This document shows, piece after piece, positions 1 to 64,000 of a stretch of DNA of 64,000 nt. Under the pieces are notes generated by a model that was not told the origin of the DNA, did not search any database, and saw only the letters and a list, made by a program, of their open reading frames with translations. How positions within the stretch are numbered: position 1 is the stretch's first letter; each line of letters opens with the position of its first letter. This DNA is from Cetorhinus maximus. Lineage: Eukaryota. The stretch spans positions 13,516,001 to 13,580,000 of the forward strand of contig NC_135901.1 of NCBI RefSeq assembly GCF_964194155.1, written 5' to 3'. The translations under genes were made by a program, and so were the position numbers.

Positions 1-1850
1 CGAATTCCCTCCCCAAAGCCCATTTTGGAGAGCACATCCCCCATGTAGGTGTGCGATATTCTGTCAAAGGCCTTCTCCTGATCCAAGCTGATGAGGCAGG
101 TATCCACACCCCTGTCCTGTACATAGGCAATCGTATCCCTGAGCAGCGCCAGGCTGTCAGAGATCTTCCTGCCTGGCACAGAGCAGGTCTGGTCAGGGTG
201 AATCACCAATTCCAGAGCGGATTTGACCCGGTTGGCGATGACCTTGGACAGAATCTTATAGTCCACATTCAACAGTGAAATGGGTCGCCAATTTCTAATT
301 TCCTCCCTTTCCCCCTTGTGCTTGTAGATGAGGGTGATGATGCCTTTCCTCATGGATTCTGACATGCTGCCGGCCAGGAGCATACTCTCGTACACTTCTA
401 GCAGGTCTGGGCCGATCAAGTCCCACAGAGCCGAATACAACTCCGCCGGCAGGCCGTCGCTTCCGGGGGTTTTACTCTTCTCGAAGGACTCGAGGGCCTT
501 AGTCAGTTCGTCAGGAGTTAGCGGTTTGTCTAGGCTCTCCCGCGTACTGTGGTCTAAGACCTCCGTGATAGAGGACAGGAAGGACTGGGAGGCCGTGCTG
601 TCCGTGGGCTTCACGTCATACAGACCGGCATAAAAGGATTTGCTGATCCTCAGAATGTCGGACCGTGATGACTTTACTGAGCCGTCTTCTTCCTTCAGGC
701 TGCTGATCACAGAGCGCTCTCTGTGTACCTTTTGGAAGAAGAAACGTGAGCACGTCTCATCCTGCTCCACGGAGCGGACTCTGGAGCGGAAGATGATCTT
801 GGAGGCCTCCGAGGCAAAGTGCGAGGCTTGCTGGCCCTTCACCTCTTGGAGCTCCTCCTTGACATCGACCCCCATCGACTGCAGCCGGAGCAGATTCTGC
901 ATCTTTTCCTGGAGTCGGGACATTTCCCTCTGTTCCTTTCTAGCTTTCTGGGTGCCTTTGCGGATGAAAAACCTCTTGATGCTTCCCTTGATCACTTCCC
1001 ACCAGTGTGTCAGGGACTCAAAGAGGGGTTTCACGGTTCTCCAACCTTTGTAATCCCTCTTGAGCTCCTCAATGTTCTCTGGGGTCAGCAGTTGCACATT
1101 TAGCTTCCATGCCCCCCTGCCCACCCTCAGGTCTTCCTCCAAGTGGCAGTCCGCCAGTAGGAGGCAGTGGTCAGAGAAGAACACCGGCTTGACGTCGGTG
1201 GATCTGACTGTGAATGCACGGGACACAAACAGGAAGTCTATCCTGGAACGAATGGACCCGTCTGGCCGCGACCAGGTGTATCTACGCTGCGCTCCGTCTG
1301 CAGGGTTGCTGAAGACGTCGTGCAGCTTGGCATCCTTAACTGTTTCCATCAGGGATCTGGACGTAGCGTCCAATCTGCTTCCGGCCCTGCCGGATCGTCC
1401 AGCCGCATCGATGATGCAGTTGAAGTCCCCGCCCAGAATGACCGGCCTGGAGGTCGCCAGCAGCAGTGGGAGCTGCTGAAAAACCTCCAGCCGCTCAGCC
1501 CCTTGTGCCGGGCCGTACACGTTAATTAACCGGAGTGGAGCGTTCTTGTACATTACGTCTGCTACCAGGAGTCGCCCGCCCACCACCTCCTTGACCTCGG
1601 AGACGGTGAAGTTGCCTCCCCGCAGCAGAATACCCAGGCCGGAGGAACGAGAGTCGTTTCCGCCCGACCAGATCGATGGCCCGTGGGACCACCATCGTGA
1701 CCATTGCCTGTAGGAGCTGAGGTGCGGTATCGCACACTCCTGCAGAAACAACAGGTCAGCTTTGACCTTGGCTAGGTAGTCCAAGGTCGCAACACATCGC
1801 GTAGTAGATTTAATGCTACGCACATTTATGGATACAATCTTTAAACCCAT
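1..1850 (-). CDS. Tx1 ORF2 (AP endonuclease plus N-terminal part of RT), runs off the window
   Basis: ATG at 1850 gives MGLKIVSINVRS...LFLQEC...GGDFNC...FSDH...PGSDGLP...WRPISLLNVDYKIL...DQEKAFD. The ORF track lists no stop-terminated ORF in this frame, so it is inferred to be open to the window edge. Confidence 0.9.
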   Translation of the reverse strand, partial: MGLKIVSINVRSIKSTTRCVATLDYLAKVKADLLFLQECAIPHLSSYRQWSRWWSHGPSIWSGGNDSRSSGLGILLRGGNFTVSEVKEVVGGRLLVADVMYKNAPLRLINVYGPAQGAERLEVFQQLPLLLATSRPVILGGDFNCIIDAAGRSGRAGSRLDATSRSLMETVKDAKLHDVFSNPADGAQRRYTWSRPDGSIRSRIDFLFVSRAFTVRSTDVKPVFFSDHCLLLADCHLEEDLRVGRGAWKLNVQLLTPENIEELKRDYKGWRTVKPLFESLTHWWEVIKGSIKRFFIRKGTQKARKEQREMSRLQEKMQNLLRLQSMGVDVKEELQEVKGQQASHFASEASKIIFRSRVRSVEQDETCSRFFFQKVHRERSVISSLKEEDGSVKSSRSDILRISKSFYAGLYDVKPTDSTASQSFLSSITEVLDHSTRESLDKPLTPDELTKALESFEKSKTPGSDGLPAELYSALWDLIGPDLLEVYESMLLAGSMSESMRKGIITLIYKHKGEREEIRNWRPISLLNVDYKILSKVIANRVKSALELVIHPDQTCSVPGRKISDSLALLRDTIAYVQDRGVDTCLISLDQEKAFDRISHTYMGDVLSKMGFGEGI

Positions 1851-1860
1851 ATTAAAGCAT

Positions 1861-3423
1861 TTATTCTCCTACCAAACCCACTGTCTCTGAGAGTCCCAGA
1901 CCTTTAGTCTGCTCCTTCATACCCGTAGTGAGCTCAAATTCCTTCACTTTGGATGGGCTGAGGTAGATCTCCTTGGCCGTGTTCTGCTCCAGTGGCATCT
2001 GGAGGTTCACGTAGTGAGCGGGTTTTGAGATGACCTTTGCTGGAGAAGCTTCTCCAAAACTCACCCCCTCTGGGGGGTTGCTGTTCCCGGCTTCCTGGAG
2101 CTGGGGTGCGATGATTGCCTCACTGCTCCCAGATTCCAGGGGCTGTGGTGCACTGGCCTCCTCAGGTTGCAGGCAAAGTTGGGGTGCGCTGGTCTCCTTG
2201 TTGTCTCCAATTTTCTGGAGCTCGGGTGTCTCGTCCTCCAACGCCCTGGAGCTTTGCCGCCTCTTCTGTCGGTGCCGCTCTGGCACTTCATCATCCGAAG
2301 AGCTGCTGCCCTTGTCATCCGTGTCGGATGGGAGACGCCTCTTGCCGCTTCTCTGGGAAACGCCTTTGCTTCTTCTTCGCTCCCTCTTACTTTTCTTGTT
2401 CTTCACCGTCCGCCACTCCCCCTGCTGCTTTTCCACTGCTGCCTCCTCCTCCATTGATTCGCTGTCCTGAGGACTGGAAGGTTCAGGGGGTAGTGCTGTT
2501 GATTGGCTCTCTGTTGCCTCAATCTCTTTCTCCACCTTGTCTCTCTCTGTGTCCTCCTTTGTCCCGTTGAGCTCCCTGGGGGCCTTGGTGGTTGGAGTGA
2601 CACGGAACCTTTCTTCTGCTTCCCCCTGGTCGGCTTTGGCTGCCTGTGCGTAAGTACGGCAGCGTTTGGGGCAGGTCCTGTAGAGGTGACTTGCCTCGCC
2701 ACACAGGTTGCAGCACTTGGCCTGTTTGCAGTCTTTTGTCTGGTGCCCTTCCTGTTTGCAGATCTTGCAGAGGGAGGCGCTGCAGTTGGCCGCCACATGG
2801 CCAGCCTTGCCGCATGAGCGACAATGCTTGGGTTGCCCAGCGTAGACCAGGTAGCCACGGTTTCCCCCGATAGCGAAACTGGAAGGAGGGTGGAAAATGG
2901 CTCCCTTACCATCGGTCTTTAGCGTGACCTTAAACAGGCGTTTGCCTGTCCAGATCCCCAAGTCGTCTCGAATCTCGGTGCCGCTCCCCACCTTATCGAA
3001 GTACCTGGTGAGGAAGGTGACCACGTCGGCGACAGGGACGAAGGGGTTGTACACATGCACCATCACCTCACGTTCCCGTTGCAACGGCAGAGAAAAGTGC
3101 AGCTCCGCCGTCAGGATCTTCATCTCCGGCAGGTCTCTCTTCTCCTCGAACACCCTCAGGAGCCGGACGCAGTCTGCCACTCGCTTGAACGTCACGTCAA
3201 AATAACCACCTTTGCGGGAGTCGTGCAGGGTGAAGATCTCCGTAGCTTGGAAGCCGCACGCCTTCAACAGGATCCTCCTGGTGAAGAAGCCCCGATCCAT
3301 AGGTGATCCTCCTTCGTCGCTGTGGTTCACCGTGACTCGGACGGTGATAGGTAACCCACGGTATGGATTCAGATTGCGATTGGTTATCGCCCTTCCATCC
3401 CAACCTTGCCTTGGCAGGACCAT
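1861..3423 (-). CDS. Tx1 ORF1 (ZCCHC3-like gag-knuckle protein), about 520 aa
   Basis: Knuckles CRSCGKAGHVAANC, CKICKQEGHQTKDC and CNLCGEASHLYRTC, then a charged low-complexity tail. The first in-element ATG is at 3423 (ACCATGG). The track's start at 3474 lies in flanking L2 sequence. Confidence 0.88.
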   Translation of the reverse strand: MVLPRQGWDGRAITNRNLNPYRGLPITVRVTVNHSDEGGSPMDRGFFTRRILLKACGFQATEIFTLHDSRKGGYFDVTFKRVADCVRLLRVFEEKRDLPEMKILTAELHFSLPLQREREVMVHVYNPFVPVADVVTFLTRYFDKVGSGTEIRDDLGIWTGKRLFKVTLKTDGKGAIFHPPSSFAIGGNRGYLVYAGQPKHCRSCGKAGHVAANCSASLCKICKQEGHQTKDCKQAKCCNLCGEASHLYRTCPKRCRTYAQAAKADQGEAEERFRVTPTTKAPRELNGTKEDTERDKVEKEIEATESQSTALPPEPSSPQDSESMEEEAAVEKQQGEWRTVKNKKSKRERRRSKGVSQRSGKRRLPSDTDDKGSSSSDDEVPERHRQKRRQSSRALEDETPELQKIGDNKETSAPQLCLQPEEASAPQPLESGSSEAIIAPQLQEAGNSNPPEGVSFGEASPAKVISKPAHYVNLQMPLEQNTAKEIYLSPSKVKEFELTTGMKEQTKGLGLSETVGLVGE

Positions 3424-3437
3424 GGTGTCGCCCCTGC
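3402..3437 (-). ncRNA. U1 snRNA-derived pieces in the head of Tx1 copy A
   Basis: GCAGGGGCGACACCATGGTC versus U1 GCAGGGGAGATACCATGATC is 17/20. It is followed by CTGCCAAGGCAAGGTT, resembling U1 TTCCCAGGGCGAGGCTT. Confidence 0.7.
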
Positions 3438-3438
3438 A

Positions 3439-3460
3439 ACACTTGATCTTAGCCAAAAGG
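3439..3460 (-). ncRNA. U2 snRNA-derived fragment (about nt 13-34) at the 5' end of Tx1 copy A; not a gene
   Basis: Minus strand reads CCTTTTGGCTAAGATCAAGTGT, 22/22 identical to the vertebrate U2 5' region as I recall it. Confidence 0.85.
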
Positions 3461-4905
3461 AAGACCAAAGCCATTGTCTTCAGTCACCACTACAAATTCC
3501 GTTCCCTAACCACTGAGTCCATCCCTCTCCCTGGGAACTGTCTGAGGCTGAACAACACTCTTCACAATCATGGTGTCAGATTTAACCCCAAGATGAGTTT
3601 CTGACCACATATCTACACCATCACTAATACCAGATATTTCAACCTCCATAACGTCGCCTGTCTCAACCCCACCCTAGATCATCTGATGCTGAAACCCTAA
3701 TCCACGCCCGTGTTACCTTTAGACTTGACGATTCCAATACATTCCAGGCCAGACTCTCATATTCATCCCACCCCCACGTGGAAACATGTAATCATCCAAA
3801 ACTCTGCCCCTGTGCTTTTTCACACCAAGTCCCGTTCATCCATTCCTCACCATTTTTGATTTATTCTTTTACAGGATATGGGTGACCCGGCTAGGCCAGC
3901 ATCTGTTGCCCATCCCTAGTTGCCCTTGAGAAGGTGGTGGTGAGCTGCCTTCTTGAACTGCTGCAGTCCATGTGGTGGAGGTACACCCACAGTGCTGTTA
4001 GGAAGGGAGTTTAAGGATTTTGATCCAGTGATAGTGAAGGAATGACCATAGAGTTCCAAGTTAGGATGGAGTGTTTCTTGGAGGGGGACTTGCAGGTGGT
4101 GGTGTTCCCATGTTTCTGCTGACCTTCTAGGTGGTAGAGGTTGCAGGTTTTGAAGGTGCTGTCGAAGGAGCCTTAGTGAATTGCTGCAGTGCATCTTGTA
4201 GATGGTACACACTGCTGTCACTGGTGGAGGGTGTGAATGTTTAAGCTAGTGGATGGGGTGCCAAGCAAGCGAGGTGCCAAAGGATGCTTTGGCCTGGATG
4301 GTGTCGAGATTCCTGAGTGTTATTGAAGTTGAACTCATCCAGGCAAGTGGGCAGTATTCCATCACACACCTGACTTGTGTCTTGTAGATGGTGGACAGGC
4401 TTTGGGATGTCGGGAGCTTAGTTTCTTGCCATATAATTCCTAGCTTCTGACTTGTTCTTGTAGCCACAGTATTTATATGGCTGTTTCAGTTTAGTTTCTG
4501 GTCAATGATAATGTTGATGTCGTGTGTGATTGGCTCCTGGTGAAGCAATGATTCAGTTTTAAAATTTGCATCCTTGTTTGCAAATTGTTCCATGGCCTCT
4601 TCCCTCCCTATCTCTGTAATCTCCAATCACACACCCTCTGAGATATCTGCACTCTTCACATTCTGACCTCTTTAGCACCCCTGATTTTAATTACTGCATT
4701 GGTCACCAGGCCCAGGTGTGAAGCTCCGAAATTCCCTCCCTAAACCTCTTAACCTCTCTCCTATTCGAGATTCTTGTTACAATCTGCCTCTCCAATCAAA
4801 CTTTGGCCATTTACCAAAATAACCCCTATGTGACTCGGTGTCAACTTTTGTTTTATGAAACTTGTCTGAAGCACATTAATCATGTTATATAAATACAAGT
4901 TGTTA
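3461..4905 (+). mobile_element. L2-clade LINE 3' remnant, split by an insertion at about 3860-4525
   Basis: Degenerate KTKAIVF...ETLIHA.VT.RLD.SN reading and an L2-like tail (ATATAAATACAAGTTG). Homologous pieces lie at about 43470-43730 (-) and 48010-48410 (+). Confidence 0.65.
3860..4525 (-). mobile_element. CR1-group LINE 3' fragment (family with the AAVCTIYKMHC...AAHHHLLKGN tail)
   Basis: ORFs 3916-4221 and 4246-4467 (TIYK.QVR.VMEYCPLAW). The same family occurs at 33270-33740, 47700-47960 and 51480-53270. Confidence 0.75.
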
Positions 4906-8244: not shown

Positions 8245-8435
8245 AAACTGCAGATGCTGGAATTCTGAAATATAAACAGGAAATGCCAGAAAAACTCAGC
8301 AGGTCTGTCAACTTCTGTGGATAGAGAAACAGATTGAATGTTTTGAGTCCAGTATAACTCTTCCTCGAAGGACGAGAGTTATATGGACTCAAAACATTAA
8401 CTCTGTTTCTCTCTCCACAGATACTGCGAGGCCTG
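8245..8435. repeat. Fold-back (inverted) Penelope pseudo-LTR fragment
   Basis: Arm 8315-8361 pairs with 8375-8420. The motif AACTCTGTTTCTCTCTCCACAGATRCTG also occurs near 13050, 21915 and 28620. Confidence 0.65.
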
Positions 8436-8579
8436 ATTTATTTCACAGAATATTAAACTCCAGCCCAGTTACAGGGATTATAAACATCAGCAGAAAGAAA
8501 CACCAGCTGTTAGAATGAACACTGTTCAATCCTGGATGTAATAAACAGCAGCAACAACAGCAGAATCCAACCTCTGCAG

Positions 8580-9422
8580 TCACTTGTGAATTCGCTTGTG
8601 AGTCACCAGGTTGGATGACCGAGTGAATCCCTTCCCACACTCAGAGCAGGTGAACGGTCTCTCCCCAGTGTGAAGTCGCTGGTGTCCCAGCAGGCTTGAT
8701 TTTTGAGTGAATCCCTTCCCACACACAGAGCAGGTGAATGGCTTCTCTCCAGTATGAATTCGCTGGTGTGTCAGCAGGTGGGATGAATGGGTGAATCCCT
8801 TACCGCACTCCGAGCAGGTGAATGGCCTCTCGCCAGTGTGAACTCTCTGGTGCTCCATGAGACTGGAAGACTGAGTGAATCCCTTCTCACACATGGAGCA
8901 GATGAACGGCCTCTCCCCAGTGTGAACTCTCTGGTGCTTCTGCAACGTGGAAGACTGAGTGAATCCCTTCCCACACAGAGAACAGGTGAATGGCCTCTCC
9001 CCAGTGTGAGTGCGTTGGTGTGTTACCACCTCACTTCTGCTTTTAAAACTCTTCTCACATTCTGAACATTTAAAAGGTCTCATGTCAGTGTGAACACGTC
9101 GGTGTGTCAGCAGGGTGGATAACTGTGCAAATTCCTTCCCACACACCAAGCAGGAAAATGGCCTCTCCCCGGTGTGAACTCGCATGTGCATGTGCAGCTT
9201 GGATAACTCTGTGAATCCCTTCCTGCACATGGAGCAGGTGAATGGTTTCTCCCCGGTGTGACTGCGCCGATGAATCTCCAGTTGGGATGGATAATTGAAT
9301 CCCTTCCCACAGTCCCCGCATTTACAGGGTTTCTCTCCAGTGTGATTGCGTTGATGAGTGTCCAGCTCAGACGGGTAATTGAATCCCTTCCCACAGTCCC
9401 CACATTTCCACGGTTTCTCCAT
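8580..9422 (-). CDS. C2H2 zinc-finger protein, 10 fingers, no KRAB
   Basis: 280-aa open frame starting MEKPWKC with TGE(K/R)PF linkers. Decayed fingers with stops lie upstream (9423-9670) and a splice acceptor is near 9790. Confidence 0.9.
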
Positions 9423-10489
9423 GGTGTGAGTGTCCTTGTGTCTCTCCAGGTTGGACGATCAGTTGAAGCCTCATCCACACACAGAACACGTGTACGGTCT
9501 CTCCCCACTGTGAATGGTGTGATGTTTTTTCAGGATCTGTAACTGGTTAAAGATCTTTCCACAGTCAGTTCACTGGAACACTCTCACTCGGGTGTGTGTG
9601 TCTCAATGCTTTTCCAGTCACACTGATGTTTGAAATATTTTCCCGCAGACCGAACACGCAAACATTTCCCCTTTCACAATCAAAGACCGATGATATTCAG
9701 GTCCTGATGAATCGAATGACTCTGTCAGATCCTGATGTGATATTTGACTTGAGTTTCCTGTCTGTAAATCCTCCCGTTCTAATCCCCTGTAAAAGGAGTT
9801 CACACAGAATTACTTAGAATATAGAGCACAGAAACAGACCATTCAGTCCAGCAAGTTTGTGCCCATATTTATGCTCCAAACTCATCCCCTTCCATTCCAT
9901 CTGCTTCAAGTCAGCCTTTCAGCTTATCTTTCTATTCCCTTTTCTCTCATGTAATCAGTTAGTTTCCTTTTGAAACATCTAAGCATTTTGCCTCAATCAC
10001 TTCCTGTGTCAACGAGTTTCACATTCTAACCAATCTCAGAGTGAACACATTTCTCCTTATTGGATTCCTCAGTAACTGTCTTGTATTTCTGGCCCCGAGT
10101 TTTGGATTTTCTCACACGTGGAAACATTTTCTCCACATTGACCAAGATCCCACATGGCAGACTGGGCAGGAAAGTAAAAGCTCATAGCACCCTAGAAGGA
10201 GTGGCAAATTGGATGCAAAATTGGCTAATGGCAGGAAGCGGTGGTGCATGGTCAATGTGTGTTTTTGTGAATGGAAGGCTATTTCCAGTGATGTTCTGCA
10301 GGCCTCAGTACTGGTTAACAATAAAAATAAAAGCTGTAAGAGTGCAGAAAGATATCACTGGACTAGTCAGGTGGGCCAAGTGCTGTCTTCACACACTAAG
10401 GATACCCTCCATCATGTTCTGTGGCACTACCGCTGTGCTGAATGAAATAGATTCAAAGAGGATCCAGCAGCTCAAAATTAGACATCCAT

Positions 10490-18620: not shown

Positions 18621-19377
18621 AAACCAAACAAAAATTACAGGCGTTGGGGAAGTTTGGATTGGAGTTTTTTTTCTTGAGAAAAGGAAGAGTGAACAGTGAG
18701 CTGATGGAGGTCTTTACAATGATCAATGGGTTGGATGGAGTAGATATGGAGACAATGTTTCCACTTGAAATTTCTTTACTCAGAGAGTGGTGAGGATGTG
18801 GAACTCACAGGAAACCATTGAGGAAAGGAAACTGATAATTTCAACAGGAAACTGGATGAGTACGTGAGAAAAAAGGGATTAGAAAGATAAACTGAAAGGC
18901 TGAGATAATTTGGATGGAATGGGAGGAGAAGCATAAAACTAGCAGAATAGTTGGACAGAATGGCCTGTTTGTTCATTGCATATTTTGAGTATTTCAAATT
19001 AAACTCTTTTTACAGGGTATTCGGAGGGTTTGATTTGCAGATGGGAAATTCAAATCAAACATCACGTCAAGATCTGACAGAGACAATTGCTCCACCAGGG
19101 CCTGAATGTCATCAGCCTTTGAATGTGGAAGGAGAAATGTTTGTCTGTTCTGTCTGTGAGAAAAGATTTCAAACATCAATGTGACTGGAAAAGCACAAAG
19201 ACAGACACACACCCGAGTGACAGTGTTGCAGTGAATTGACTGTGGAAAGAGCTTTAACCAGTTACACAGCCTGAAAAAACATCACACTGTTCACAGCGGG
19301 GAGAGACTGTACATGTATGTGTGTGGTCAGGCTTCAACTAAGCGCGCAACCTGGAGAGACACAAGGATACCCACACC

Positions 19378-20526
19378 ATGGGGAAACCGTGGAAATGTGG
19401 GGACTGTGGGAAGGGATTCAATTCCCCATCTGAGGTGGAAACTCATCGACGCTGCCACATTGGGGAGAGGCCGTTCACCTGCTCCGTGTGTGGGAAGGGA
19501 TTCACTCAGTCATCCAGCCTCTACACACACCAGCATGTTCATACTGGTGAGAGGCCATTCACCTGCCTTGAATGTGGGAAGAGATTTAATGCTTTATCAA
19601 ACCTCCGGACTCACCATCGGGCTCACTCTGATGAGAGACCGTTTAAATGTTCTGACTGTGAGAAGAGCTTTAAAAGCACAAAGGATCTACTGACACACCA
19701 ACGCACTCACACTGGGGAGAGGCCATTCATCTGCACAGTATGTGGGAAGGGATTCACTCAGTCATCCCACCTCCTGACACACCAACTTGTTCACACTGAC
19801 AAGAGACCTTTTGAATGTTGTGACTGTGAGAAGAGCTTTAAAAGTAAAAAGGATTTACTGAACCACAAACGCACTCACACTGGGGAGAGGCCATTCACCT
19901 GCTCCGTGTGTAGTAAGAGATTCACTTGTTCATCCCACCTTCTGACACACCAATTTGTTCACACTGATCAGAGACCTTTTCATTGTTCTGACTGTGAGAA
20001 GAAATTTAAAAGCAAAAAGGATCTTCTGAAACACAAACACACTCACACTGGGGAGAGGCCGTTCACCTGCTCTATCTGTGGGAAGGTATTCACTCGGTTA
20101 GCCCACCTGGTGAGACACCATCGAGTTCACACTGGGGAGAGGCCATTCACCTGCACTGAGTGTGGGCAGGAATTCATTGATTCATCAGACCTTCTGATAC
20201 ACCAGCGAGTTCACTCTGGGGAGAAACCATACACTTGCCTTGTGTGTGGCAAAAGATTCAGTCAGTCATCTCATCTTACTACACATCAACTTGTTCACAC
20301 TGATCAGAGACCTTTTAAATGTTCTGACTGTGAGAAGAGATTTAAAAGTAAAAGGAATCTGCTGACACACCAGCAAGTTCACACTGGGGAGAGGCCGTTC
20401 ACCTGCTCCATGTGTGGGAAGGGATTTGCTCAGTCAAACAACCTGCTGAGACACCAGCAAGTTCACATGCGACAGCGGGGGTTGGATTCTGCTGTTACTG
20501 CTGCAGTTAATCACATCCAGGACTGA
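19378..20526 (+). CDS. C2H2 zinc-finger protein, 13 fingers, no KRAB
   Basis: 382-aa open frame starting MGKPWKC. Acceptor TTTTTACAG at about 19014 and decayed upstream fingers. Confidence 0.9.
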   Translation: MGKPWKCGDCGKGFNSPSEVETHRRCHIGERPFTCSVCGKGFTQSSSLYTHQHVHTGERPFTCLECGKRFNALSNLRTHHRAHSDERPFKCSDCEKSFKSTKDLLTHQRTHTGERPFICTVCGKGFTQSSHLLTHQLVHTDKRPFECCDCEKSFKSKKDLLNHKRTHTGERPFTCSVCSKRFTCSSHLLTHQFVHTDQRPFHCSDCEKKFKSKKDLLKHKHTHTGERPFTCSICGKVFTRLAHLVRHHRVHTGERPFTCTECGQEFIDSSDLLIHQRVHSGEKPYTCLVCGKRFSQSSHLTTHQLVHTDQRPFKCSDCEKRFKSKRNLLTHQQVHTGERPFTCSMCGKGFAQSNNLLRHQQVHMRQRGLDSAVTAAVNHIQD

Positions 20527-20539
20527 ATCATGTCTGGAA

Positions 20540-26420: not shown

Positions 26421-26827
26421 ACAAATGTGGGTTAATGAAGGAAATGCAGCAATGGGTTTGTTAATGAGAAATCACCTTTAACTCACTTTACTGATCCTGG
26501 AGCAGGAGAGAATGGTGTGAATTTCTATCCTGGACTGACAGGGATAGTTTTTGGAAACTCCCTTTACTGAGGGTTAGAAGAGGTGGATTTACAGACAGAA
26601 AAGTCAAACAGACCTGGAGCCTGATCCCCCTCCCTGAAGGATATTAGTGATGCAGTTGAGTTCAGCTCCACAAATTACCAGATTTATTCAGCTCAATTTC
26701 ACAACCTAGGTTTGTCTTTTTGTGGTTTCTCTCTCACTCCCTCTTTTCTGTTTTAAATCAGTTTCATAGGATATTAGAAGGAGAGGGATTGCAGTCAGGA
26801 AATTGAAATCAAACATCATACCAGGAT

Positions 26828-27916
26828 ATGACAGAGTCTCTCGATTCATCAGGACCTGAATATTATCAGTCTTTGAACATGGAAGTAAAAAGCACCATTA
26901 ACACTGAGGAGAAACCAGGGAAATGTGGGCACTGTGGGAAGGGATTCAATTACCCATCTAAGCGAGAAATTCATCAGCGCTGTCACACTGGGGAGAGGAT
27001 ATTTTCCCACTCTGACTGTGGGAAAGAATTCATTGATTCAACCAACCTGCTGACACACCAGCGAGTTCACACTGGGGAGAGACCGTTCAGCTGTCCCAAG
27101 TGTGGGAAGGGATTTGCTCAGTCATCCACCCTGCTGATATACCAGCGAGGTCACACTGGGGAGAGACCGTTCACCTGCTTCGAGTGTGGGAAGGGATTCA
27201 CTTGTTCATCCAACTTGATGAGACACCAGCGAGTTCACACTGACAAGAGACCTTTTAAATGCCCGGGCTGTGGGAAGTGCTATCAAACTTTAGATAAACT
27301 TATGTCCCATCAACATATTCACACTGACGAGAGACCGTTCAGGTGCTCTCACTGTGGAAATGGGTTCAGGCGATCATCCGAACTCACTGTACACCAGCGA
27401 ATTCACACTGGGGAGAGACCATTCCTCTGCTCTGAGTGTGGGATGGGATTCACTCAATCAGCCAATCTGCTGTCACACCAGCGAGTTCACACTGATGAGA
27501 GACCTTTTAAATGCATAGACTGCAGGAAATGTTTTAAAAGTTCTGGAGCACTGATGCGCCATCAAAGAGTCCACACTGATGAGAGACCTTTTAAATGCCC
27601 AGACTGTGGGAAGTGATATAAAAGGTCTGGGGATCTGATGTCCCATCAACGTATTCACGCTGACGAGAGACCATTCAGATGCTCTCACTGTGAGATTGGG
27701 TTCAGGCAATCGTCTCAGCTCACTGAAAATCAGCGAATTCACACTGGAGAGAGGCCGTTCACCTGCTCCGAGTGTGGGAAGGGATTTACTCAGTCATTCC
27801 ATCTGCAGACACACCAACGGGTTCACAGTGTGGAGAGACCTTTCACCTGTTTCGTGTGTGGGAAGAGAATCACTCGGTCATCCACCCTGATGAGTCACCA
27901 GCGAGTTCACAAATAA
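26828..27916 (+). pseudogene. C2H2 ZNF (about 12 fingers) with an in-frame TGA at 27614-27616
   Basis: ORFs 26828-27616 and 27638-27916 share a frame. Three fingers have also lost Zn ligands (HSDC, YQRGH, NQRIH). Confidence 0.8.
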
Positions 27917-28789
27917 TTACAGTGATTGGATTTTGCTGTTAATCATGCCCAGGACTGAACCATGTTCATTGGGGTCTGTTTCTGCTGATGTTAATAAACT
28001 CCAGCCCAGTTTTACTGGTTAATATTTTGGATAAAAGTCAAATAAATCAGCTTTGTTCTAAACGCACAGTGTGGCGAATCTTCTAGTATCTCTAACAGAA
28101 GTTAGTTCCTTTTGAAGTGCTCTCCCTTTCCTCGTATCCTCCTCCTCACCTCAAACAACAAGCATGAGAAGCTCATGGAGCTTCTTTGTCACGAAGATTG
28201 AGACAATCCGATCAGCTGCCTCTGCTTCTTCCCTCCCTTCCACTAGCCCACCTGGCCAAACTGTATCTGAAGCGCCTTCTTGTCGAAGCTCTGCACTTGC
28301 ATCTTTCTCCAGTTTCTCTCCTATCTTCCATCTCCCTCAGCTCATCTTGTCCATGAGACCTGCCTTCGGCTTCCTTGACCCTATTCTCACTAAACTGCTG
28401 ACCATCCAACTTCCACATTTTAGACAATATTCTTAATGGTTCTCTTTCTTTTCGTACTGTCCCTCTCACCTTTAAATCCATTGTTGTCTCTCATCATAAA
28501 AAAATCCTTCGACCCCACCATCCTCCTCCACTCTCTTTTCTCTAACTTGGTACTTGCTGGCAAACTGTTAGATCTCTAATTCTTTTCCAGTTTGGATCAA
28601 AGGTTCCTGACCTGAAGCATTCACTCTTTTTCCCTCTCTGTAGATGCTGTTTGACCTGCTCAGAGTTTCCAATATTTTCTGTTTTGAGGTCAAACAATTA
28701 TACGAATTAGGAGGAGGAGTAGGCCACTCGGCCCCTCGAGCCTGATCTAATTGAGCTGATCTAATTGTAACCTTAACTCCACATTCCTG

Positions 28790-34790: not shown

Positions 34791-35301
34791 TCATTCATCT
34801 CTGAAAAATTAAATGAGTATCTCTTTAATCAAAAATACAATTTAACATTTATCAGTTTAATTTTTAAAAATTCTTTGTTATCTCAATCCTAGACATCGCT
34901 GCAGGAATTCCTCAGGACAGTATCCTGGGCCCAACCATCTTCAGCTGCTTTATCAATCATAAATCAGACTTGGGAATATATTGCCGTTCCTTCATTGTCG
35001 CTGGGTCAAAATCCTGGAACTCCCTTCCTAACAGCGCCGACACCACATGGACTACAGCAGTTCAAGGAAGTGAACAGGAAGATTTGCTGACAGGAAACTC
35101 AAACCAAAAATCACGTCAAAATCTGACAGATTCACTCAATACATCAGGTGCTGGATATCATTGAAACTTAAATGTAGAAGGAGAAATGTTTTAACCAATT
35201 GCACGGCGTGAAAAAACATCCAATCATTCACAGCGGGGATAAACTGTATACGAAGTTTGGTCTGACCATCCAACATGGACAGCCACGAGGACACCGGCAC
35301 C

Positions 35302-36144
35302 ATGGAGAAACCGTGGAAATGTGGGGACTGTGGGAAGGGATTTGGTTCCCCGTCAAAGCTGGAAATTCATCAACGCAGTCACACTGGGGAGAGGTCATTC
35401 ACCTGCTCCGTGTGTGGGAAGGGATTCACTAGTTCATCCAACCTTCTGAGACACCAGCACATTCACACTGAGCAGAGTTCAGTCATCTGCTCCGTGTGTG
35501 GGAAGGCAATCGGTCATTCATCAAACTTTCTGAGGCACCAGCAAACTCACAGTGGAGAGAGGCCGTTCACCTGCTCTGTGTGCGGGAAGGGATTCACTCA
35601 GTCATCCTACCTGCTGACACACCAGCGCATTCACACAAGGGAGAGACCGTTCATCTGCTCCTTGTGTGGAGAGGGATTTAACCAATTATCCAGGCTTCTG
35701 AATCACCAGAGAATTCACACTGGGGAGAGCCCATACACCTGCTTTATCTGTGGCAAGGGATTTCATCGGCCTTCCAAACTACTGACACACCAGCGAATTC
35801 ACACTGGGGAGAGGCCATTCACCTGCTCCATGTGTGGGAAGGGATACACCAATTCATCTGACCTGTTGACACATCAGCGAGTTCACACTGGCGAGAGGCC
35901 ATTCACATGTTCCGTGTGTGGAAAAGGATTCATTCGGTCATCCCACCTTCTGACACATCAACTTGTTCATACTGATCAGAGACCTTTTAAATGTTCTGAG
36001 TGTGAGAAGACCTTCAAAAGTGAAAAGGATCTGATGACACACCAACGAGTTCACACTGGGGAGAGGCCATTCACCTGCTTCGTGTGTGGGAAGGGATTCA
36101 CTCAGTCATCCACCTTGCTGACACATCAGCGAGTTCACAAGTGA
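35302..36144 (+). CDS. C2H2 zinc-finger protein, 10 fingers, no KRAB
   Basis: Open frame MEKPWKC...HQRVHK*. An alternative in-frame ATG is at 35275. Confidence 0.9.
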
Positions 36145-36244
36145 CTATGGGGATTGAAATCTGTGGTTACTGTTGCTGTTAATCCTGTTCAGGATTGAAT
36201 TCTTTCATTCTGACAGATGGAGTTTGTTTCTGCTGAAATATAAT

Positions 36245-43180: not shown

Positions 43181-44212
43181 GGACCGGAATCTCAGGAGGC
43201 TTCACACCGCTGGCTGCTCGTGAGGAAGTGATCTCCGATCAGATTAATGTGCTTCTGCTGTGAGTATTTAATAAAGTGTCCGAACCTCTCATTGTGCTTC
43301 CTGTCCAATATCCCCCTTGCCATGGATCTTCCAATTTACCAACTGGGGGAAAAAAATGGCTGTTCACTGATTGGTCTCGATGGCGGCTGGTTTATCTAGA
43401 ATGCCCTGTGGGTCAGAAAGTCCCCTATCAATGAGAACAGGAACCCAGAGCGCCAGCGTGGGGACCGGGCTGTGCTCTGAGGCAGGGGCACAGCTGGGCG
43501 ATGTTACTGAGGTGGAAATGGGTGGTTTTAGTGATTTGTAGTGAGTAGCTCAGCTTGGGCTGAAATTTGACAACAAGATTGTGAATAGTCTGGTTCAGCC
43601 TCAGAGAGCTGCAAGAGGGATGGAGTCGGTGGTTAGGGAGTGGAGACAATGGCTTTCATCTTCCCAACATTTAAATGGAGGAAATTTCTGCTCATCCAGT
43701 ACTGGATGTCAGACAAGTTAGGACAGTGTGTGAGTTGGAGGTGATGGTGTTCATTGACACCTGTTACCTTCGTACTTCTAGGTAGGGGATGTTGAGGGTT
43801 TGGGATATTCTGCCAAAGTTCTGGTTGAGCTGAAGATGTATTGAACACATCTTCACCCCCTGCACCTCCCACCTCTCTCTTTCATCCCATGGAGGCCAGA
43901 GTCTTGTGTAGACCCAGACCAGGTGGCAGGTTCCATTCCCTGAAGGACATTAGTGAACCAGTTGGGTTTTTATGACAATCCGGCAGTTTTCATGGTCACT
44001 TTTCCCTCATGCCGGCCCCACAAATTACCAGATTCATTCAGCTCAATTTCACAACCTGCATTTGTGTTTTTGTGGATTCTCTCTCACACCTTTTTTTCTG
44101 TTTTAAATCAATTTCACAGGGTATTAGAAGGGGAGGATTTGCAGTCAGGAAACAGAAACAAAACATCACAGCAGAATCTGACATTCGCCCTGAATATCAT
44201 TTGATTTTGAAC

Positions 44213-45334
44213 ATGGAAGGAGAAAGTACCGTTCACAGTGGAGAGAAATCGTACATGTGTCCTGTGTGTGGACGAGGCTTCAACCGATCATCTGGCCTGT
44301 CAAGACACAAGCGCAGCCACATCGGGGAGAAACCATGGAAATGTGGGGACTGTGGGAAGGGATTCAGATTCCCGTCAGAGCTGGAAGAGCATCGGCGCAG
44401 TCACACTGGGGAGAGGCCGTTCACTTGCTCAACGTGTGGGAAGGGATTTACTCTTTCAAGCTACCTGTTGAGCCACCAGCGAGTTCACAGTGAAGAGAGA
44501 CCTTTTAAATGCCCAGACTGTGGGAAGTGCTTTAAAAGTTCCTGTGAGCTGATGTCCCATCAACGTGTTCACACTGACGAGAGACCATTTAAATGCTCTC
44601 ACTGCGGTACTGGGTTCAGGCGATCATCTCAACTCACTGTACACCAGCGAATTCACACTGGGGAGAGGCCGTTCACCTGCCCCGAGTGTGGGAAGGGATT
44701 CACTCAGTCATCCCACCTGCTGACACACCAGCAAGTTCACACAGGGGAGAGACCTTTCATCTGCTCTGAGTGTGGGAAGGGATTCACTGCCTCATCCTAC
44801 CTGCTGAGACACCAGCGAGTTCACACTGGGGAGAAGCCATTCACCTGCCCCCAGTGTGAGAAGGGATTCACTCAGTTATCTAGCCAGCTGAGACACCAGC
44901 GAGTTCACACTGGGGAGAAGCCATTCACCTGCCCCCAGTGTGGGAAGGGATTCACTCAGTTATCTAGCCTGCTGACACACCAGCAAATTCACACTGGGGA
45001 GAGGCCATTCATCTGCCCTCAGTGTGGGAAGAGATTCACTACCTCATCCAACCTGCTGGCACACCAACGAATTCACACTGGGGAGAGGCCGTTCACTTGC
45101 CCCCAGTGTGGGAAGGCATTTATTCATCCATCCCACCTGCTGACACACCAACGAATTCACACTGGGGAGAGACCATTCACCTGCCCCCATTGTGGGAAGG
45201 GATTCACTACCTCATTCAAGCTGCTGGCACACCAACGAATTCACACTGGGGAGAGGCCATTCACCTGCCCTCAGTGTGGGAAGGGATTCACTACCTCATC
45301 CAACCTGCTGACACACCAGCGAGTTCACAAGTAA
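44213..45334 (+). CDS. C2H2 zinc-finger protein, 13 fingers, no KRAB
   Basis: [19 protein letters not shown]...HQRVHK*. Acceptor TTTCACAG at about 44118. The part of the track ORF from 44009 is intron or SINE. Confidence 0.9.
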
Positions 45335-45889
45335 CTAAAGTGGTGGGATTTTGCTGTTAATCACATCCAGGTCTGAACCATGTTCATTGGGATCTGTTCC
45401 TGCTGATGTTAATAAACTACAGACCACTTAGGAGGGCGAATATTCTGGATAAATATCAAATAAATTAGTTTTGTGTTAAAGACACGATGTGTTGAATCTT
45501 TTTAAATCTCTAACACAAGTTCATTCCTTTTGAAATGCTCTCCCTCCATCCTCACCCCCAACAACTGGTGTGAGGATCTCATGGAGCTTCTTTGTCACTA
45601 AGATTGAGACAATCGGATGAGCTGCCTCTGTTGCTTCCCTCCTTTCCACTCGCCCTCCCTAAAGTTCCCCAATACCTGAGCCCTGAACTCACATCTTTCT
45701 GTAGTTTCCCTTCCATCTCCCCTCATGCCCTCTCAGAGCTCATCTTGTCCATGAAATTCATCTCTTGCTCTATTGACCCTACACCCACTAAACTACTGAT
45801 CACTCAACTTCCCCATTTTCACTGAATATGTCGACAGTTTTCTCTCTCAAGTCCTGTCCATCTTTCCTTCAAATCTGCCATCATTATAC

Positions 45890-54425: not shown

Positions 54426-55113
54426 GGAATTGAATGTCACCCCAGTCAACAGTAACTACAGCATGTTGTATATAGCGCCTTAGCCACAGTAAAAAGTTCC
54501 AAATCCCTTCACAGCTGTGTTAACAATCCCCACACTAGTGGGTAGATTCCCCACACCTCTGTGCTTGTGTCTCCAATTTGGTTCCCAGAACAGTGCCATC
54601 ATTTCCATCCAAAAATTGAAATGCACCTATTTTGCCAAGGTAAGTGGTCAATTCAGTGATGTAACACCCCAGTGGTTGTAAGCAGCAGATCATCTGGCTC
54701 AGTATGAGATGTTCCTTGTTAGATGGGCTAGGAATGTAGTATAAACACAGCCTGACAGTTGCTTCATCAACTCCAAGTCACAGTCCACAGTTAAATGATC
54801 TGAGGGCCAAATGGACTCCTTTATCTCTCTCATTGCATATTGTTCGATAAGAATGAGATCACACCTAACTGATCATCTTTTATCAACTGGAGTAGGTCAT
54901 TCAGCCCTTCGAGCCTGCTCTGCTATTCAGTTAGACTCTGGCTGATCAATTCATCTCCTCAGAACTTGAGGGACAATTTCCTGAACAGTTAGCTCCAACC
55001 AGTTATAGGGGTTATGAACAGCAGCAGAAACAAATGCAAACTGTCCGAATGAACATGGTTCAGACCTGGATGTGATTAACAACTGCAATAACAAGAGAAT
55101 CCACCTCCAGAAG

Positions 55114-59353: not shown

Positions 59354-59405
59354 ATACTTACCTGGCAGGGCAGAAACCTCGATCACAAATTCTGCCAGGG
59401 AAGGG
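59354..59405 (+). ncRNA. U1 snRNA-derived head of Tx1 copy B; not a complete gene
   Basis: ATACTTACCTGGCAGGG is identical to U1 nt 1-17, followed by CAGAAACCTCGATCACAAATTCTGCCAGGG, a stem-loop I-like sequence that keeps GATCAC. Confidence 0.88.
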
Positions 59406-59409
59406 TAAA

Positions 59410-61038
59410 ATGGCTATAACCAATCAAACCCCATATCATGGGGTACCTAACACTGTCCGAGTCACAGTGTAGGGTAGTGAAGAAGGAGGAGCAGCTATGG
59501 ACCGGGCTCTTTTCACTAGGAGGATCCTGCTGAAGGTGTGCAGCTTTGAGGCTGTGGATGTCTACTGCCTGCAAGATTTCCCCAGCGCTGGATACTTCGA
59601 CGTGACATTTCAGTGAGTGGCAGACTGCGTCAAGCTCCTGAAGGTTTTCAAGGAGAAGAGTGACCTGCCAGAGATGAAAATCCTGACAGCGGAGCCGCTC
59701 TTTGCTCTGCCTTTGCAACGGGACGATGTGGTGACGGTGCATCTATACAACCCCTTCGTCCCTGTCGCCGACGTGGTCACCTTCCTCACCAGGCACTTCG
59801 ATAAGGTGGGAAGCTGCACCACGGTTAGAGACGAGTTGGGGATCTGGACATGCAAACGCCAGGTGAAGGTCACGCTCAAGACCGACGGCAAAGGAGCCAT
59901 CTTCCACCCTCCATCCAGATTCGCTATCGGGGGAAGCTGTGGCTACCTTGTCTACGCTGGGCAACCCAAACTTTGTCGCTCATGCGGCAAGTCTGGTCAT
60001 GTGGCGGCCAACTGCAGCGCCGTCCTCTGCAAGAACTGCAAACAGGAAGGGCACCAGACCAAAGACTGCAAACAGGCTAAGTGCTGCAACCTGTGTGGCG
60101 AGGCAGATCACCTCTACAGGACCTGCCCCAAACGCTGCCGTACTTACGCACAGGCAGCCAAAGCCAACGAGGGGGAAGCAAAAGAAATGCTTCGTGTCAC
60201 TCCAACCACCAAGGCCCCCAGTGAGAGCATCGGGAACAAGGAAGACACAGAGAGAGACAAGGTGGAGGAAAAAAGTGAGGCAACAGATTTGCCTCTATCA
60301 ACAGCACTGCCCCCTGAATCTCCCACTCCTCAGGAGAGCGAATCAATGGAGAAGGAGGAGGCAGCAGTGGGAAAGCAGCAGGGGGAGTTGCAGCTGGTGA
60401 AAAGAGCCAAACGGAAGAAGGGGCTAAGAAGGAACCAAGCCATTTCCCAGACAAGTGGCAAGAGGTGTCTCCCATCCGACACAGATGACAAAGGAAGCAG
60501 CTCTTCGGACGAAGAAGGGCCAGGGTGGCACCCACAGAAGAAGCGGCAAAGCTCTAGGGAGTTGGAGGACGAGACGCCCGAGCTCCAGAACATTGGAGAC
60601 AAAGAAGAGACCAGCGCTCCCCAATTTTGTCCACAACCCGAAGAGGCCAGCGCACCCCAGCCCCAGGAATCTGGGAGCGGTGAGGTGCTCAGCACACCCC
60701 AGCTCTGGGAAGCCGGGAGCGATGAGGCGCTCAGCGCACCCCAGCCTCAGGAATCTGGGAGCGGTGAGGCGCTCAGCGCACCCCAGCTCCGGGAAGCCGG
60801 GAGCAGCAACGCCCCAGAGGGGGAGAGGATTGGAGAAGCTTCTCCAACAGAGGACAGTTCATATCCCGTTCTCTACACGAACCCCCAGATGCCACCTGAG
60901 CGGAACATCTCCAATGGGGAGTTTCAGGACCGTTTCCTCAGCCCGTCCAAAGTGAAGCAATTTGAGCTCACTACGGGTATGAAGGAGCAGACTGAAGGTC
61001 TGGGGCCCTCAGAGACAATTGGTTTGGTAAGAAAATAA
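59410..61038 (+). pseudogene. Tx1 ORF1 (three CCHC knuckles) with premature stops
   Basis: ATG at 59410 (MAITNQTPYHGVPNTVRVTV), TAG at 59470-59472, TGA at 59614-59616, then the 473-aa open remainder. Confidence 0.88.
60648..60815 (+). repeat. 42-bp (14-aa) coding tandem repeat in the ORF1 tail, about 4 units
   Basis: SAPQPQESGSGEVL / STPQLWEAGSDEAL / SAPQPQESGSGEAL / SAPQLREAGSSNA. Confidence 0.85.
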
Positions 61039-61048
61039 ACACTTTAAA

Positions 61049-64000
61049 ATGGGTGTAAAGATTGTATCCATAAATGTGCGAAGCATTAAATCTACTACGC
61101 GATGTGTTGCGACCTTGGACTACCTTGCCAAGGTTAAAGCTGACCTGTTGTTTCTGCAGGAGTGTGCGATACCACACCTCAGCTCCTACAGGCAATGGTC
61201 ACGATGGTGGTCCCATGGGCCATTGATCTGGTCGGGCGGAAACGACTCTCGTTCCTCCGGCCTGGGTATTCTGCTGCGGGGAGGCAACTTCACCGTCTCC
61301 GAGGTTAAGGAGGTGGTGGGCGGACGCCTCCTCGTAGCAGACGTAATGTACAAGAGTGCTCCACTCCGGTTAATTAATGTGTACGCCCCGTCACAAGGGG
61401 CCGAGCGGCTGGAGGTTTTTCAGCAGCTCCCACTGCTGCTGGTGACCTGCAGGCCGGTCATTCTGGGCGGTGACTTCAACTGCATCATCGATGCAGCTGG
61501 ACGATCCAGCAGTGTCGACAGCAGATTGGACGCTACGTCCAGATCCCTGATGGAAACAGTTAAGGATGCAAAGCTGCACGACATCTTCAGCAACCCTACA
61601 GACGGAGCGCAGCGTAGATACACCTGGTCGCGGCCAGACGGGTCCATTTGTTCCAGGATAGACTTCCTGTTTGTGTCCCGTGCATTCACAGTCAGATCCA
61701 CCGACGTCAAGCCGGTGTTTTTCTCTGACCACTGCCTCCTACTGGCGGACTGCCACTTAGAGAAGGACCTGAGGGTGGGCAGGGGGGCATGGAAGCTAAA
61801 TGTGCAACTGCTGACCCTAGAGAACATTGAGGAGCTCAAGAGGGATTACAAAGGTTGGAGAACCGTGAAACCCCTCTTTGAGTCCCTGACACACTGGTGG
61901 GAAGCGATCAAGGGAAACAACTAGAGGTTTTTCATCCTCAAAGGCACCCAGAAAGCTAGAAAGGAACAGAGGGAAATGTCTCGACTCCAGAAAAACATGC
62001 AGAATCTGCTCCGACTGCAGTCGATGGGGGTCGATGTCAAGGAGGAACTCCAAGAGGTGAAGAGCCAGAAAGCCATGCACTTTGCCTCGGAGGCCTCCAA
62101 GATCATCTTCCGTTCCAGAGTCCGCTCCTTGGAGCAGGATGAGACGTGCTCACGTTTCTTCTTCCAAAAGGTACACAGAGAGCGCTCTGTGATCAGCAGC
62201 CTGAAGGAAGAAGACGGCTCAGTAAAGTCATCACAGTCCGGCATTTTGAGGATCAGCAAATCCTTTTATGCCGGATTGGATGACGTGAAGCCCACAGACA
62301 GCACGGCCTCCCAGTCCTTCCTGTCCTCTATCACGGAGGTCTTAGATGACAGTACACAGGAGAGCCTGGACAAAACGCTAACTCCTGATGAACTGACTAA
62401 GGCCCTTGAGTCCTTCGAGAAGAGTAAAACTCCCGGAAGCGATGGCTTGCCGGTGGAATTGTATTCGGCTCTGTGGGACTGGATCGGTCCAGACCTGCTA
62501 GAAGTGTACCAGAGTATGCTCCTGGCCGGCAGTATGTCAGAATCCATGAGGCAAGGCATTATCACCCTCATCTACAAACACAAGGGGGGAAGGGAGGAAA
62601 TTAGAAATTGGCGACCTATTTCACTGTTGAATGTGGACTATAAGATTCTGTCCAAGGTCATCGCCAATCGGGTCAAATCCGCTCTGGAATTGGTGATCCA
62701 CCCTGACCAGACCTGCACTGTGACGAGCAGGAAGATCTCTGACAGCCTCGCGCTGCTCAGGGATACGATTGCCTATGTACAGGACAGGGGTGTGGATATC
62801 TGCCTCATCAGCTTGGATCAGGAGAAGGCCTTTGACAGAATATCGCACACCTACATGGTGGATGTGCTCTCCAAAATGAGGTTTGGGGAGGGAATTCGAA
62901 ATTGGATCCAACTGCTCTACACTAACATCAGTAGCGCAGTCTCAGTGGGAAACAGATAGCTTTCCGATTAAATCTGGAGTCAGGCAGGGCTGTCCTCTCT
63001 TGCCTGTTCCTTTCGTGTGTTGCGTAGAACCCTTTGCTGAGTCCATCAGGAAGGATCCGGGCATAAGAGGAGTGACGATCCCAGGCAGTGGAGGCACTCA
63101 GGTCAAAGCCTCCCTGTACATGGATGATGTCGTCGTCTTCTGCTCGGATCCGCTGTCGGTGCACAGACTGATCCACATCTGCGACCAGTTCGGAATGGCC
63201 TCGGGAGCCAAGGTAAACCGTGGGAAGAACGAGGCCATGTTCTTTGGGAACTGGGCTGACCGATCCTTTGTCCCCTTCACTGTCAGGGCTGACGGCCTGA
63301 AAGTGCTGGGGATATGGTTCGGAGGGACCAGGGCATGCGTTAGAAACTGGAGGGAGTGAGTGTCTATGGTGAAAAGGAAACTGGGCATGTGAGAGCGACG
63401 CTCCCTCTCCATTGCAGGTAAGAACCTGGTCATCAGGTGTGAGGCACTCTCGCTGTTGCTGTACGTGGCACAGGTCTGGCCCATTCCACACTCCTGCGTG
63501 GTGGCGATCACCCGAGCTATCTTCCGCTTTATCTGGAGGTCGAAAATGGATCGGGTCCGCAGGGACACGATGTACAAGCCTCTAGATAAAAGGGGAAAAG
63601 ACGTGCCCAACATCGCCCTCATACTGATGGCACCTTTGTGTGCGGCTGCATCAAGCGGTGTGTAGACCCTCAGTATGCAAACACCAAGTGTCACTACGTG
63701 CTGAGGTTCTACCTGTCCCCGGTGTTGCGAAGGATGGGTCTGGCCACGCTGCCACGGAACGCTCCAAGTAGTTGGACCGTGCCGTACCACCTGTCCCTCG
63801 TGGAAAAATTTATGCATAAAAACACCTTTGACCACAAGTCCATCAGGCAGTGGTCAGCACGTAACGTCTTAGAGGCCCTGTGGGAAAAGGAGAGGGTGGA
63901 TCCTGTGGGATGGTTCCCCGAGCAGACTGTCAAAGTCATTTGGCAGAATGCCTCATTACCAGAACTTTCCAACAAGCACCAAGACATAGCTTGGCTGGTG
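61049..64000 (+). pseudogene. Tx1 ORF2 (APE-RT), disrupted
   Basis: Pieces 61049-61924 (APE), 61976-62959 and 62883-63359 (GVRQGCP, LYMDD), with frameshifts near 61920, 62945 and 63630. Confidence 0.9.

Follow-up and report, generated by a model that had tools for sequence, protein, structure and literature searches.

Results

A Tx1-Type LINE with a Head Derived from U2 and U1 snRNA

The analysed window is the whole stretch of 64,000 nucleotides from Cetorhinus maximus, and it represents a C2H2 zinc-finger gene cluster. At its left end, the minus strand carries a full-length Tx1-type LINE of 5.25 kb (copy A). Both of its ORFs are open, and it has a poly(A) tail and a target-site duplication of 17 bp. 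ORF1 (1861..3423, minus strand) codes for a protein of 520 aa with two ZCCHC3-type RNA-binding domains and zinc knuckles (Pfam PF23057 and PF23058; PF00098, just under the cut-off). The 5′ part of ORF2 (1..1850, minus strand) contains the AP-type endonuclease and the reverse transcriptase. This frame is open over 1135 aa overall and extends beyond the window edge; its Pfam matches (PF03372, PF00078, and PF13966) were obtained with the 99%-identical ORF2 of another copy, L164. The domain set of the two ORFs, the poly(A) tail, and the target-site duplication are those of the Tx1 clade. The closest named proteins carry the label Cetorhinus maximus (98% and 93%), followed by those of other sharks and rays, and the nearest ORF2 matches at 46% are unnamed amphibian and assembly proteins. 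The 5′ copy of the duplication was located at 3459..3475 (minus strand), where its last 2 nt overlap the head as microhomology. The same 17 nt follow the poly(A) tail about 1.8 kb past the left edge of the window (L091), and U2 does not continue at this 3′ end, which consists of poly(A) and then the duplication.

The head of copy A is composed of snRNA-derived pieces, all on the minus strand. The outermost piece (3439..3460) corresponds to U2 nt 13–34 and is identical in 22/22 positions to the U2 genes of this genome (L061-L072). It is followed by a linking T (3438), which may be either a changed U1 nt 11 or an untemplated base, and by U1 nt 12–31 (3418..3437), which contains the first in-frame ATG of ORF1. 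The next piece (3404..3417) resembles U1 nt 44–57, is colinear with the preceding one, and now forms ORF1 codons. The U1 20-mer matched the U1 variants of this genome in 18/20 (L120), 17/20 (L124), and 16/20 positions (L111, L115, and L123), and the chance of a match of at least 17/20 is 3e-8 per site. The inner piece matched U1 nt 44–57 in 10/14 positions in four U1 variants and in 8/14 in L120. An earlier note on this DNA had described a 22-nt identity to U2, an extra T, a 17/20 match to canonical U1, and an inner U1-like remnant, and all of these were recovered. The U2 piece, which that note had defined as U2(13-34), is real, and its start at nt 13 is a 5′ truncation of copy A by 12 nt: the family head is U2(1-34), and sister copies begin at U2 nt 1. 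The predicted RNA fold of the head (z = −2.4, −2.1, and −1.7) was too weak for use.

At the other end of the window, on the plus strand, lies copy B (59354..64000), a member of an older U1-headed subfamily that has both ORFs broken and ends about 0.65 kb outside the window. Its head (59354..59406, plus strand) consists of U1 nt 1–33 and a colinear U1 remnant, and it was the sole match, below the gathering score, when the whole window was searched with Rfam. The ORF2 sequences of copies A and B are 95.0% identical. Copies of the B type begin at U1 nt 1 at many unrelated sites. Among further U1-headed relatives, L157/L175 has U1 nt 8–34 exact, followed by a short gap and the inner U1 piece; copies A and B keep the same order of pieces with different gaps. 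Because this order is shared, the two U1 layers of copy A are colinear pieces of a single U1 head that was inherited and lacks an internal stretch. They had been interpreted before as two separate additions, which does not agree with their joint presence in L157/L175. The gradient of identity across the head may result from the outer part being refreshed by the annealing discussed below, or from plain coding drift.

The Head as an Inherited Trait of the Family

Exact matches to a 30-mer across the U2/U1 junction number 611 in this genome (G000), against 0 for the reversed control. A 5′ motif common to both subfamilies has 1243 occurrences genome-wide, and the linking base is another letter in only 3 copies. 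The heads are thus part of the element and inherited, as the earlier note had proposed, and the stack is a trait of the family, not private to copy A. Head classes were counted by eye in the first 30 copies ordered by position: 22 carry U2(1-34), 6 carry U2(1-37) plus 2 nt, one has a U1 head, and one is truncated. Another 40 dispersed copies were then taken by position, and 39 of them were read. U2 nt 1 is reached in 15/39, and upstream of it none of the 39 matches more than 4 nt of the U2 flank. Both ORFs are open in 26 and a duplication of 9–25 bp is present in 25 of these copies.

U2 sequence was found at the 3′ joint of only 2/39 dispersed copies on large chromosomes, whereas under Keno-type specificity most copies are U2-flanked. 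The preference at dispersed sites is about A-(T/G)-N-T only, with position 1 fixed by the poly(A) and positions 5–10 at chance relative to the U2 site. With regard to a preference of the Mariner-N4_AMi kind, the flanks are diverse as judged by eye, without repeat-library classification. The ORF2 identity is 99.1% among 48 U2-headed copies, a value biased upward by the many copies chosen as best matches, and 95.2% among 9 U1-headed copies. A tree of 21 rows, with all 9 U1-headed and 12/48 U2-headed copies and a midpoint root only, placed the U2-headed rows on one side of a branch with a support of 100/99. Head types differ between the subfamilies: the older copies are U1-headed, and the young clade is U2-headed.

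Copies behind U2 Gene Promoters

At least 19 full-length copies stand directly behind a U2 gene promoter among the 41 matches listed for a query of promoter, head, and body. This number is a lower bound, as the query was a young one and 40/1424 candidates were scored. Sixteen copies are found behind a type-1 and three behind a type-2 U2 promoter, and both ORFs are open in 17/18. In all 18 copies whose 3′ end was read, the poly(A) is followed by U2 from nt 38 onward, which continues in nine and is interrupted by a further insert in the other nine. The continuation of U2 at the 3′ junction, which the earlier note had named as a finding that would refute its reading of copy A, is thus absent there and present in these sister copies. 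The joint at nt 38 is the printed insertion site of Keno (PMC6136364) and of Keno and Utopia (PMC4640811), 37 nt from the U2 5′ end. The promoter-linked copies are 99.7% alike; the types of head and promoter vary among them, as do the length of the poly(A) and the inserts that follow it. One of them, L230, is decayed and groups with older dispersed copies. The youngest 5′ haplotype accounts for 9/12 distinct promoter-linked sequences versus 10/111 dispersed heads, in a comparison where the script classed two U2-cluster loci as dispersed. The three commonest dispersed haplotypes, that of copy A included, had no promoter-linked counterpart in the sample.

Twenty type-1 sites retain their own U2 5′ end. 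Twelve of them are intact genes and eight carry head-less inserts, namely six truncated copies of the same LINE and two inserts that start with a tRNA-like short element. At the head-less insert loci U2 is kept to nt 42–55, and a duplication from nt 38 was found in 6/8, which are the six loci with both sides seen. Truncated inserts at the same U2 site have differing 5′ ends. Since inserts are present at no fewer than 24/36 type-1 U2 loci (some of which may be repeats on unplaced contigs) but only the two dispersed copies mentioned above are U2-flanked, U2 genes are preferred by this family without being its specific target.

5′ Joints and Head Variants

Among the 19 promoter-linked copies, a target-site duplication was found at the 5′ joint of none, and head and gene start form one seamless sequence. 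A variant letter at U2 nt 16 that is seen in type-2 genes occurs in 6/16 heads behind type-1 promoters and in 0/20 type-1 sites whose own U2 5′ end is retained (Fisher p = 0.004, which overstates independence, as many U2 loci lie on unplaced contigs and are possible duplicates). Two of the six variant heads (L164 and L222) have type-1 sequence on both sides. The simplest reading of these data would be that the incoming cDNA head annealed to the first 34–37 nt of the gene and replaced them; later gene conversion could have moved the variant as well. For R2, experiments have demonstrated annealed 5′ joints that lack a duplication (PMC11331408).

The end of the U2(1-37) head coincides with the target cut site, and this head is present in dispersed copies on three body haplotypes. 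Double-U2 heads, in which the outer U2 piece stops at nt 36, 50, or 56, were found in 4/135 distinct heads, and three of these four lie inside U2 clusters. A dispersed copy, L013, has a private extra U2(1-50), and 1/111 dispersed heads (L142/L180) has, within its own duplication, 13 nt from the upstream flank of U2. An extra U1 layer in front of the U2 head was seen in 0/135 distinct heads. We infer that imperfect joints at the U2 site account for both U2(1-37) and the double heads. The earlier idea of repeated addition is right in that outer layers recur, with U2(1-37) in 6/30 copies and double-U2 heads as given above; their recurrence is best explained by insertion into snRNA genes.

Copies in U1 Genes and Tandem Arrays

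For the B subfamily, the case for insertion into U1 genes consists of one locus with the promoter gone. At this locus, L297, an older U1-headed copy is preceded by 16 nt of U1 upstream flank, U1 resumes at nt 34, and the rest of the promoter is replaced. Copy L167 has the same 5′ flank as L297 and a different 3′ flank. A search for poly(A) joined to U1 nt 34 gave two matches, and following up the second revealed arrays in which young U2-headed copies stand behind intact U1 genes. Six 3′ joints were read in these arrays, at U1 nt 34, 37, 38, 40, 40, and 41, and the array copies share one common 5′ joint about 650 nt beyond the U1 gene. Similar arrays are located behind type-2 U2 genes. The joints suggest that successive insertions built up the arrays, each incoming head being joined to that of the next copy. 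Copies behind an intact U1 promoter were not found: 12/12 promoter sites are intact U1 genes, with a search pattern that missed the U1 type with a shorter spacer.

A Probable U1-Derived Start of ORF1

The first in-frame ATG of ORF1 in copy A (3423-3421, minus strand) corresponds to U1 nt 26–28. Among 115 U2-headed heads, whose three length classes differ by multiples of 3, 113 have this ATG in frame with an open path to ORF1, and the first ATG is in frame and open in 92/97 heads of both types. The ancestral ORF1 start, M-A-I-T-N, is present in a horn-shark homologue (P0003) and in B-type copies, and its ATG was lost in the U2-headed clade. This distribution points to the U1-derived ATG as the probable start codon of ORF1 in U2-headed copies. 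A CCAAT-like motif, considered as a candidate for an internal promoter, was rejected on the grounds that it is ORF1 coding sequence.

Discussion

Copy A, itself dispersed, belongs to a young family of Tx1-type LINEs for which nt 38 of U2 genes is a further insertion site. Its head is quite probably target sequence, acquired through likely transcription from U2 +1. This origin of the U2 head is the most likely one because copies behind a U2 promoter are likely to be transcribed from U2 +1, a use of the promoter that is deduced from the sequence. On this view the heads most likely represent target sequence that was captured and is read from snRNA promoters, rather than RNAs acquired by template switching. 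Two stages of this process were seen directly: full-length copies with open ORFs right behind U2 promoters, with U2 resuming at nt 38, and daughters mostly elsewhere, within duplications of 9–25 bp, with heads ending sharply at U2 +1. Between them, the promoter-linked copies would act as sources whose RNA begins at U2 +1, which is why every daughter would have U2(1-34) or U2(1-37). When the cDNA head of a daughter lands in a U2 gene, it would anneal to the first 34–37 nt of the gene. The result would be a seamless joint and a new promoter-linked copy, or, if the joint is imperfect, a longer or doubled head. An ancestor may have followed the same route in U1 genes until a U1-headed copy landed in a U2 gene and U2 replaced U1 nt 1–10 or 1–11. 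The remainder of the U1 head would have been kept because its ATG had become the start of ORF1.

Some data count against this proposal. Poly(A) signals tend to go unused when transcription starts at a U1 promoter (PMC2241894), and termination in snRNA genes comes after no more than a few hundred bases (PMC5493778); a 5.2-kb element must overcome both. Since the common haplotypes are missing from the promoter-linked sample, turnover of the arrays is needed as an extra assumption, with which L230 is consistent. Insertion targeting is loose, as the 3′ joints of the dispersed copies (2/39 with U2) indicate.

The head could instead have been captured once from a U2 gene, with an internal promoter of the element starting at head +1 as in mammalian L1; dispersed copies would then be self-sufficient and U2 genes mere preferred sites. 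The sharp 5′ edge at +1 fits this equally well, and so do the open ORFs of 26/39 dispersed copies, the lack of a promoter-linked counterpart for most dispersed haplotypes, and the poor performance of snRNA promoters as mRNA promoters. We nevertheless regard it as unlikely: ORF1 begins only about 50 nt from the 5′ end, the CCAAT-like motif is coding sequence, and heads that belong to the U2 site only (U2(1-37), the nt-16 variant, and the 13 nt of upstream flank) have reached dispersed sites. Kojima, moreover, found no promoter-like sequence in SINEU (PMC4494074). A further account, printed there for SINEU (Kojima 2015) and in line with the addition of fragments proposed in the earlier note, has the reverse transcriptase switch to free U1 or U2 RNA during integration, after which the layers are inherited. 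As a main route this is already weakened, and we hold it to be very unlikely here. The joint is fixed in 611 copies with the three linking-base exceptions, and not variable; the extra layers end at U2 nt 36–56, which is the span of the target cut and duplication; and 3/4 double heads are in U2 clusters. Template switching also gives no promoter and does not predict that U2 resumes at nt 38. It is favoured by the existence of L1/snRNA chimeras (PMC13174262) and by L013, dispersed and with its private U2(1-50), and the founding U2(1-34)/U1 joint is not directly traceable.

The copies in U2 and U1 arrays might also go back to a small number of insertions, perhaps a single one, that were copied by unequal crossing-over or duplicated in the assembly, and would then say little on targeting. 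Many copies lie on unplaced contigs, the promoter-linked copies are 99.7% alike, and tandem arrays do exist. Such multiplication is hardly credible as the explanation, given the variety of heads, promoter types, poly(A) lengths, and following inserts among the copies, the differing 5′ ends of truncated inserts at one and the same site, and the five different 3′ joint positions of the U1-array units.

Returning to heads acquired as target sequence, a broader reading may be offered tentatively, with rather less than even confidence in it as a whole: a promoter-less autonomous LINE that survives by homing to spliceosomal snRNA genes again and again, in a loop. It would be transcribed from +1 by the Pol II promoters of these genes, and the captured snRNA 5′ end would steer the cDNA back into snRNA genes without duplication. 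Joining even at the head of a neighbouring copy 0.25–0.8 kb away would give rise to tandem arrays. The lineage would have switched its host gene from U1 to U2, turned the U1 leftover into a start codon, and spread to roughly two thirds of the genes of one U2 type. Insertion between +34 and +41, in U1 as well as in U2, could reflect position-based targeting via the snRNA transcription machinery. If true, the same loop would explain the heads of SINEU and Tx1-Mar.

Kojima (2015, PMC4494074) credits the heads to template switching and leaves the transcription of snRNA-headed elements open. The shark family is young enough to show a likely answer to that question, in the form of source-like copies behind snRNA promoters; its heads as captured target, with layers arising at the target site, would be the likely answer to Kojima (2015). 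It also places a Tx1 lineage in U1 genes, for which PMC4640811 lists only Dada-U1, suggests the use of a spliceosomal RNA fragment as a start codon, and reveals a heavy loading of essential U2 genes (at least 24/36 type-1 loci). The earlier note had treated recurrent addition as not known for a coding LINE in sharks. Crocodilian coding Tx1 LINEs with snRNA heads are in print (PMC4494074). Our literature searches, with Repbase Reports and Kojima and Fujiwara 2004 outside their scope, found no report of a shark Tx1 with snRNA heads or of promoter capture by Keno.

The crocodilian Tx1-Mar elements are coding LINEs with U1 heads (Tx1-2_Crp, Tx1-2B_Crp, and Tx1-4_AMi) or a U2 head (Tx1-11_Crp) that co-cluster with Keno (Kojima 2015, PMC4494074). 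The shark family likewise has a U1- or U2-derived head on a coding Tx1 element. In contrast, the crocodilian elements prefer Mariner-N4_AMi and are 85–87% identical to consensus, while the shark copies are about 99% alike and include source-like copies behind snRNA promoters. For SINEU, both U2-over-U1 stacking and 5′ extensions have been described (PMC4494074); SINEU are non-coding and shorter than 500 bp, unlike the 5.25-kb copy A with its two open ORFs. The U6/U1/U2-L1 chimeras (PMC13174262) have the snRNA 5′ of the LINE, in sense orientation and inside one duplication. They are independent events, usually not propagated, with joints private to each, whereas the identical shark joint was inherited by hundreds of copies.

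Utopia (PMC4640811) shares the U2 site, tandem insertions, and, in reptiles, a weakened specificity; it differs in its restriction-like endonuclease, single ORF, and unrelated clade. R2 likewise relies on transcription of its target gene, and its target-derived 5′ RNA leads to upstream cDNA annealing and a duplication-free joint (PMC11331408). It differs in its restriction-like endonuclease, Pol I co-transcription, ribozyme, and strict site specificity. Keno is a U2-gene-specific LINE of the Tx1 clade with an AP-endonuclease (Kojima and Fujiwara 2004, as cited in PMC4494074, PMC4640811, and PMC6136364). As far as these citing texts describe it, the shark family resembles Keno in the AP-type endonuclease and reverse transcriptase, the zinc-knuckle ORF1, the poly(A) tail, and the position of the U2 3′ joint; it differs in being mostly dispersed, in the inherited U2 5′ head, in its presence in U1 genes, and in the head-guided seamless joints. 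We did not class it as Keno because its copies lack strict specificity. By analogy, the shark family would seem to work like Keno, with target co-option of the R2 type added.

Tandem arrays at U2 and U1 genes

Tandem arrays containing the LINE were found on one basking shark contig (G000:C30:4318919-4386968 and C30:6575173-6588206; loci L205-L213, L295, and L308-L312). They have a period of ~5.53 kb, and each unit consists of a head, the LINE, poly(A), U2 from nt 35 or 38 to its end, and a 95 nt flank. The units are not uniform, as the head and the 3′ joint vary between them. One of the arrays is preceded by an intact type-2 U2 gene. Equivalent arrays are situated behind U1 genes on contigs C1476 (L301, L302, and L313) and C31 (L116, L306, and L307), where each unit duplicates ~780 nt made up of the rest of U1 plus flanking sequence.

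Other insertions

Copies often land directly 3′ of another copy's poly(A) or inside another's head, which results in head-to-tail trains (L007, L027, L038, L040, L044, L055, L057, and others). In two large-chromosome copies (L251 and L274), the tail is followed by U2 from nt 38 (~60 and 9 nt, respectively) and then by another truncated copy. This U2 stretch may have been carried along by 3′ transduction, or the copies may have inserted into a U2 pseudogene. At L077 / L165, the insertion lies in the promoter region of a type-2 U2 gene, ~95 nt upstream of the gene start.

The U2 nt-38 site also holds a short tRNA-like element in L292 and L293, accompanied in L293 by a duplication. The same element adjoins LINE copies in L104, L131, L138, L215, and L217. 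The element at nt 38 is likely a SINE that the LINE described here mobilised.

Within the window, we observed a C2H2 zinc-finger gene cluster with 84-bp repeats (8465-9520, 19235-20530, 26800-27950, 35190-36200, 43970-45360, and 55000-55590) and a near-perfect inverted repeat of ~37 bp (8311-8424), whose Rfam microRNA matches were weak, under gathering scores.

An older relative

An older Tx1 relative (L172:5930-6470), ~80% identical, carries U2 nt 4-42 and, behind it, U1 nt 11-34. This joint is unlike that of the young family and suggests an independent capture of U2 over U1.
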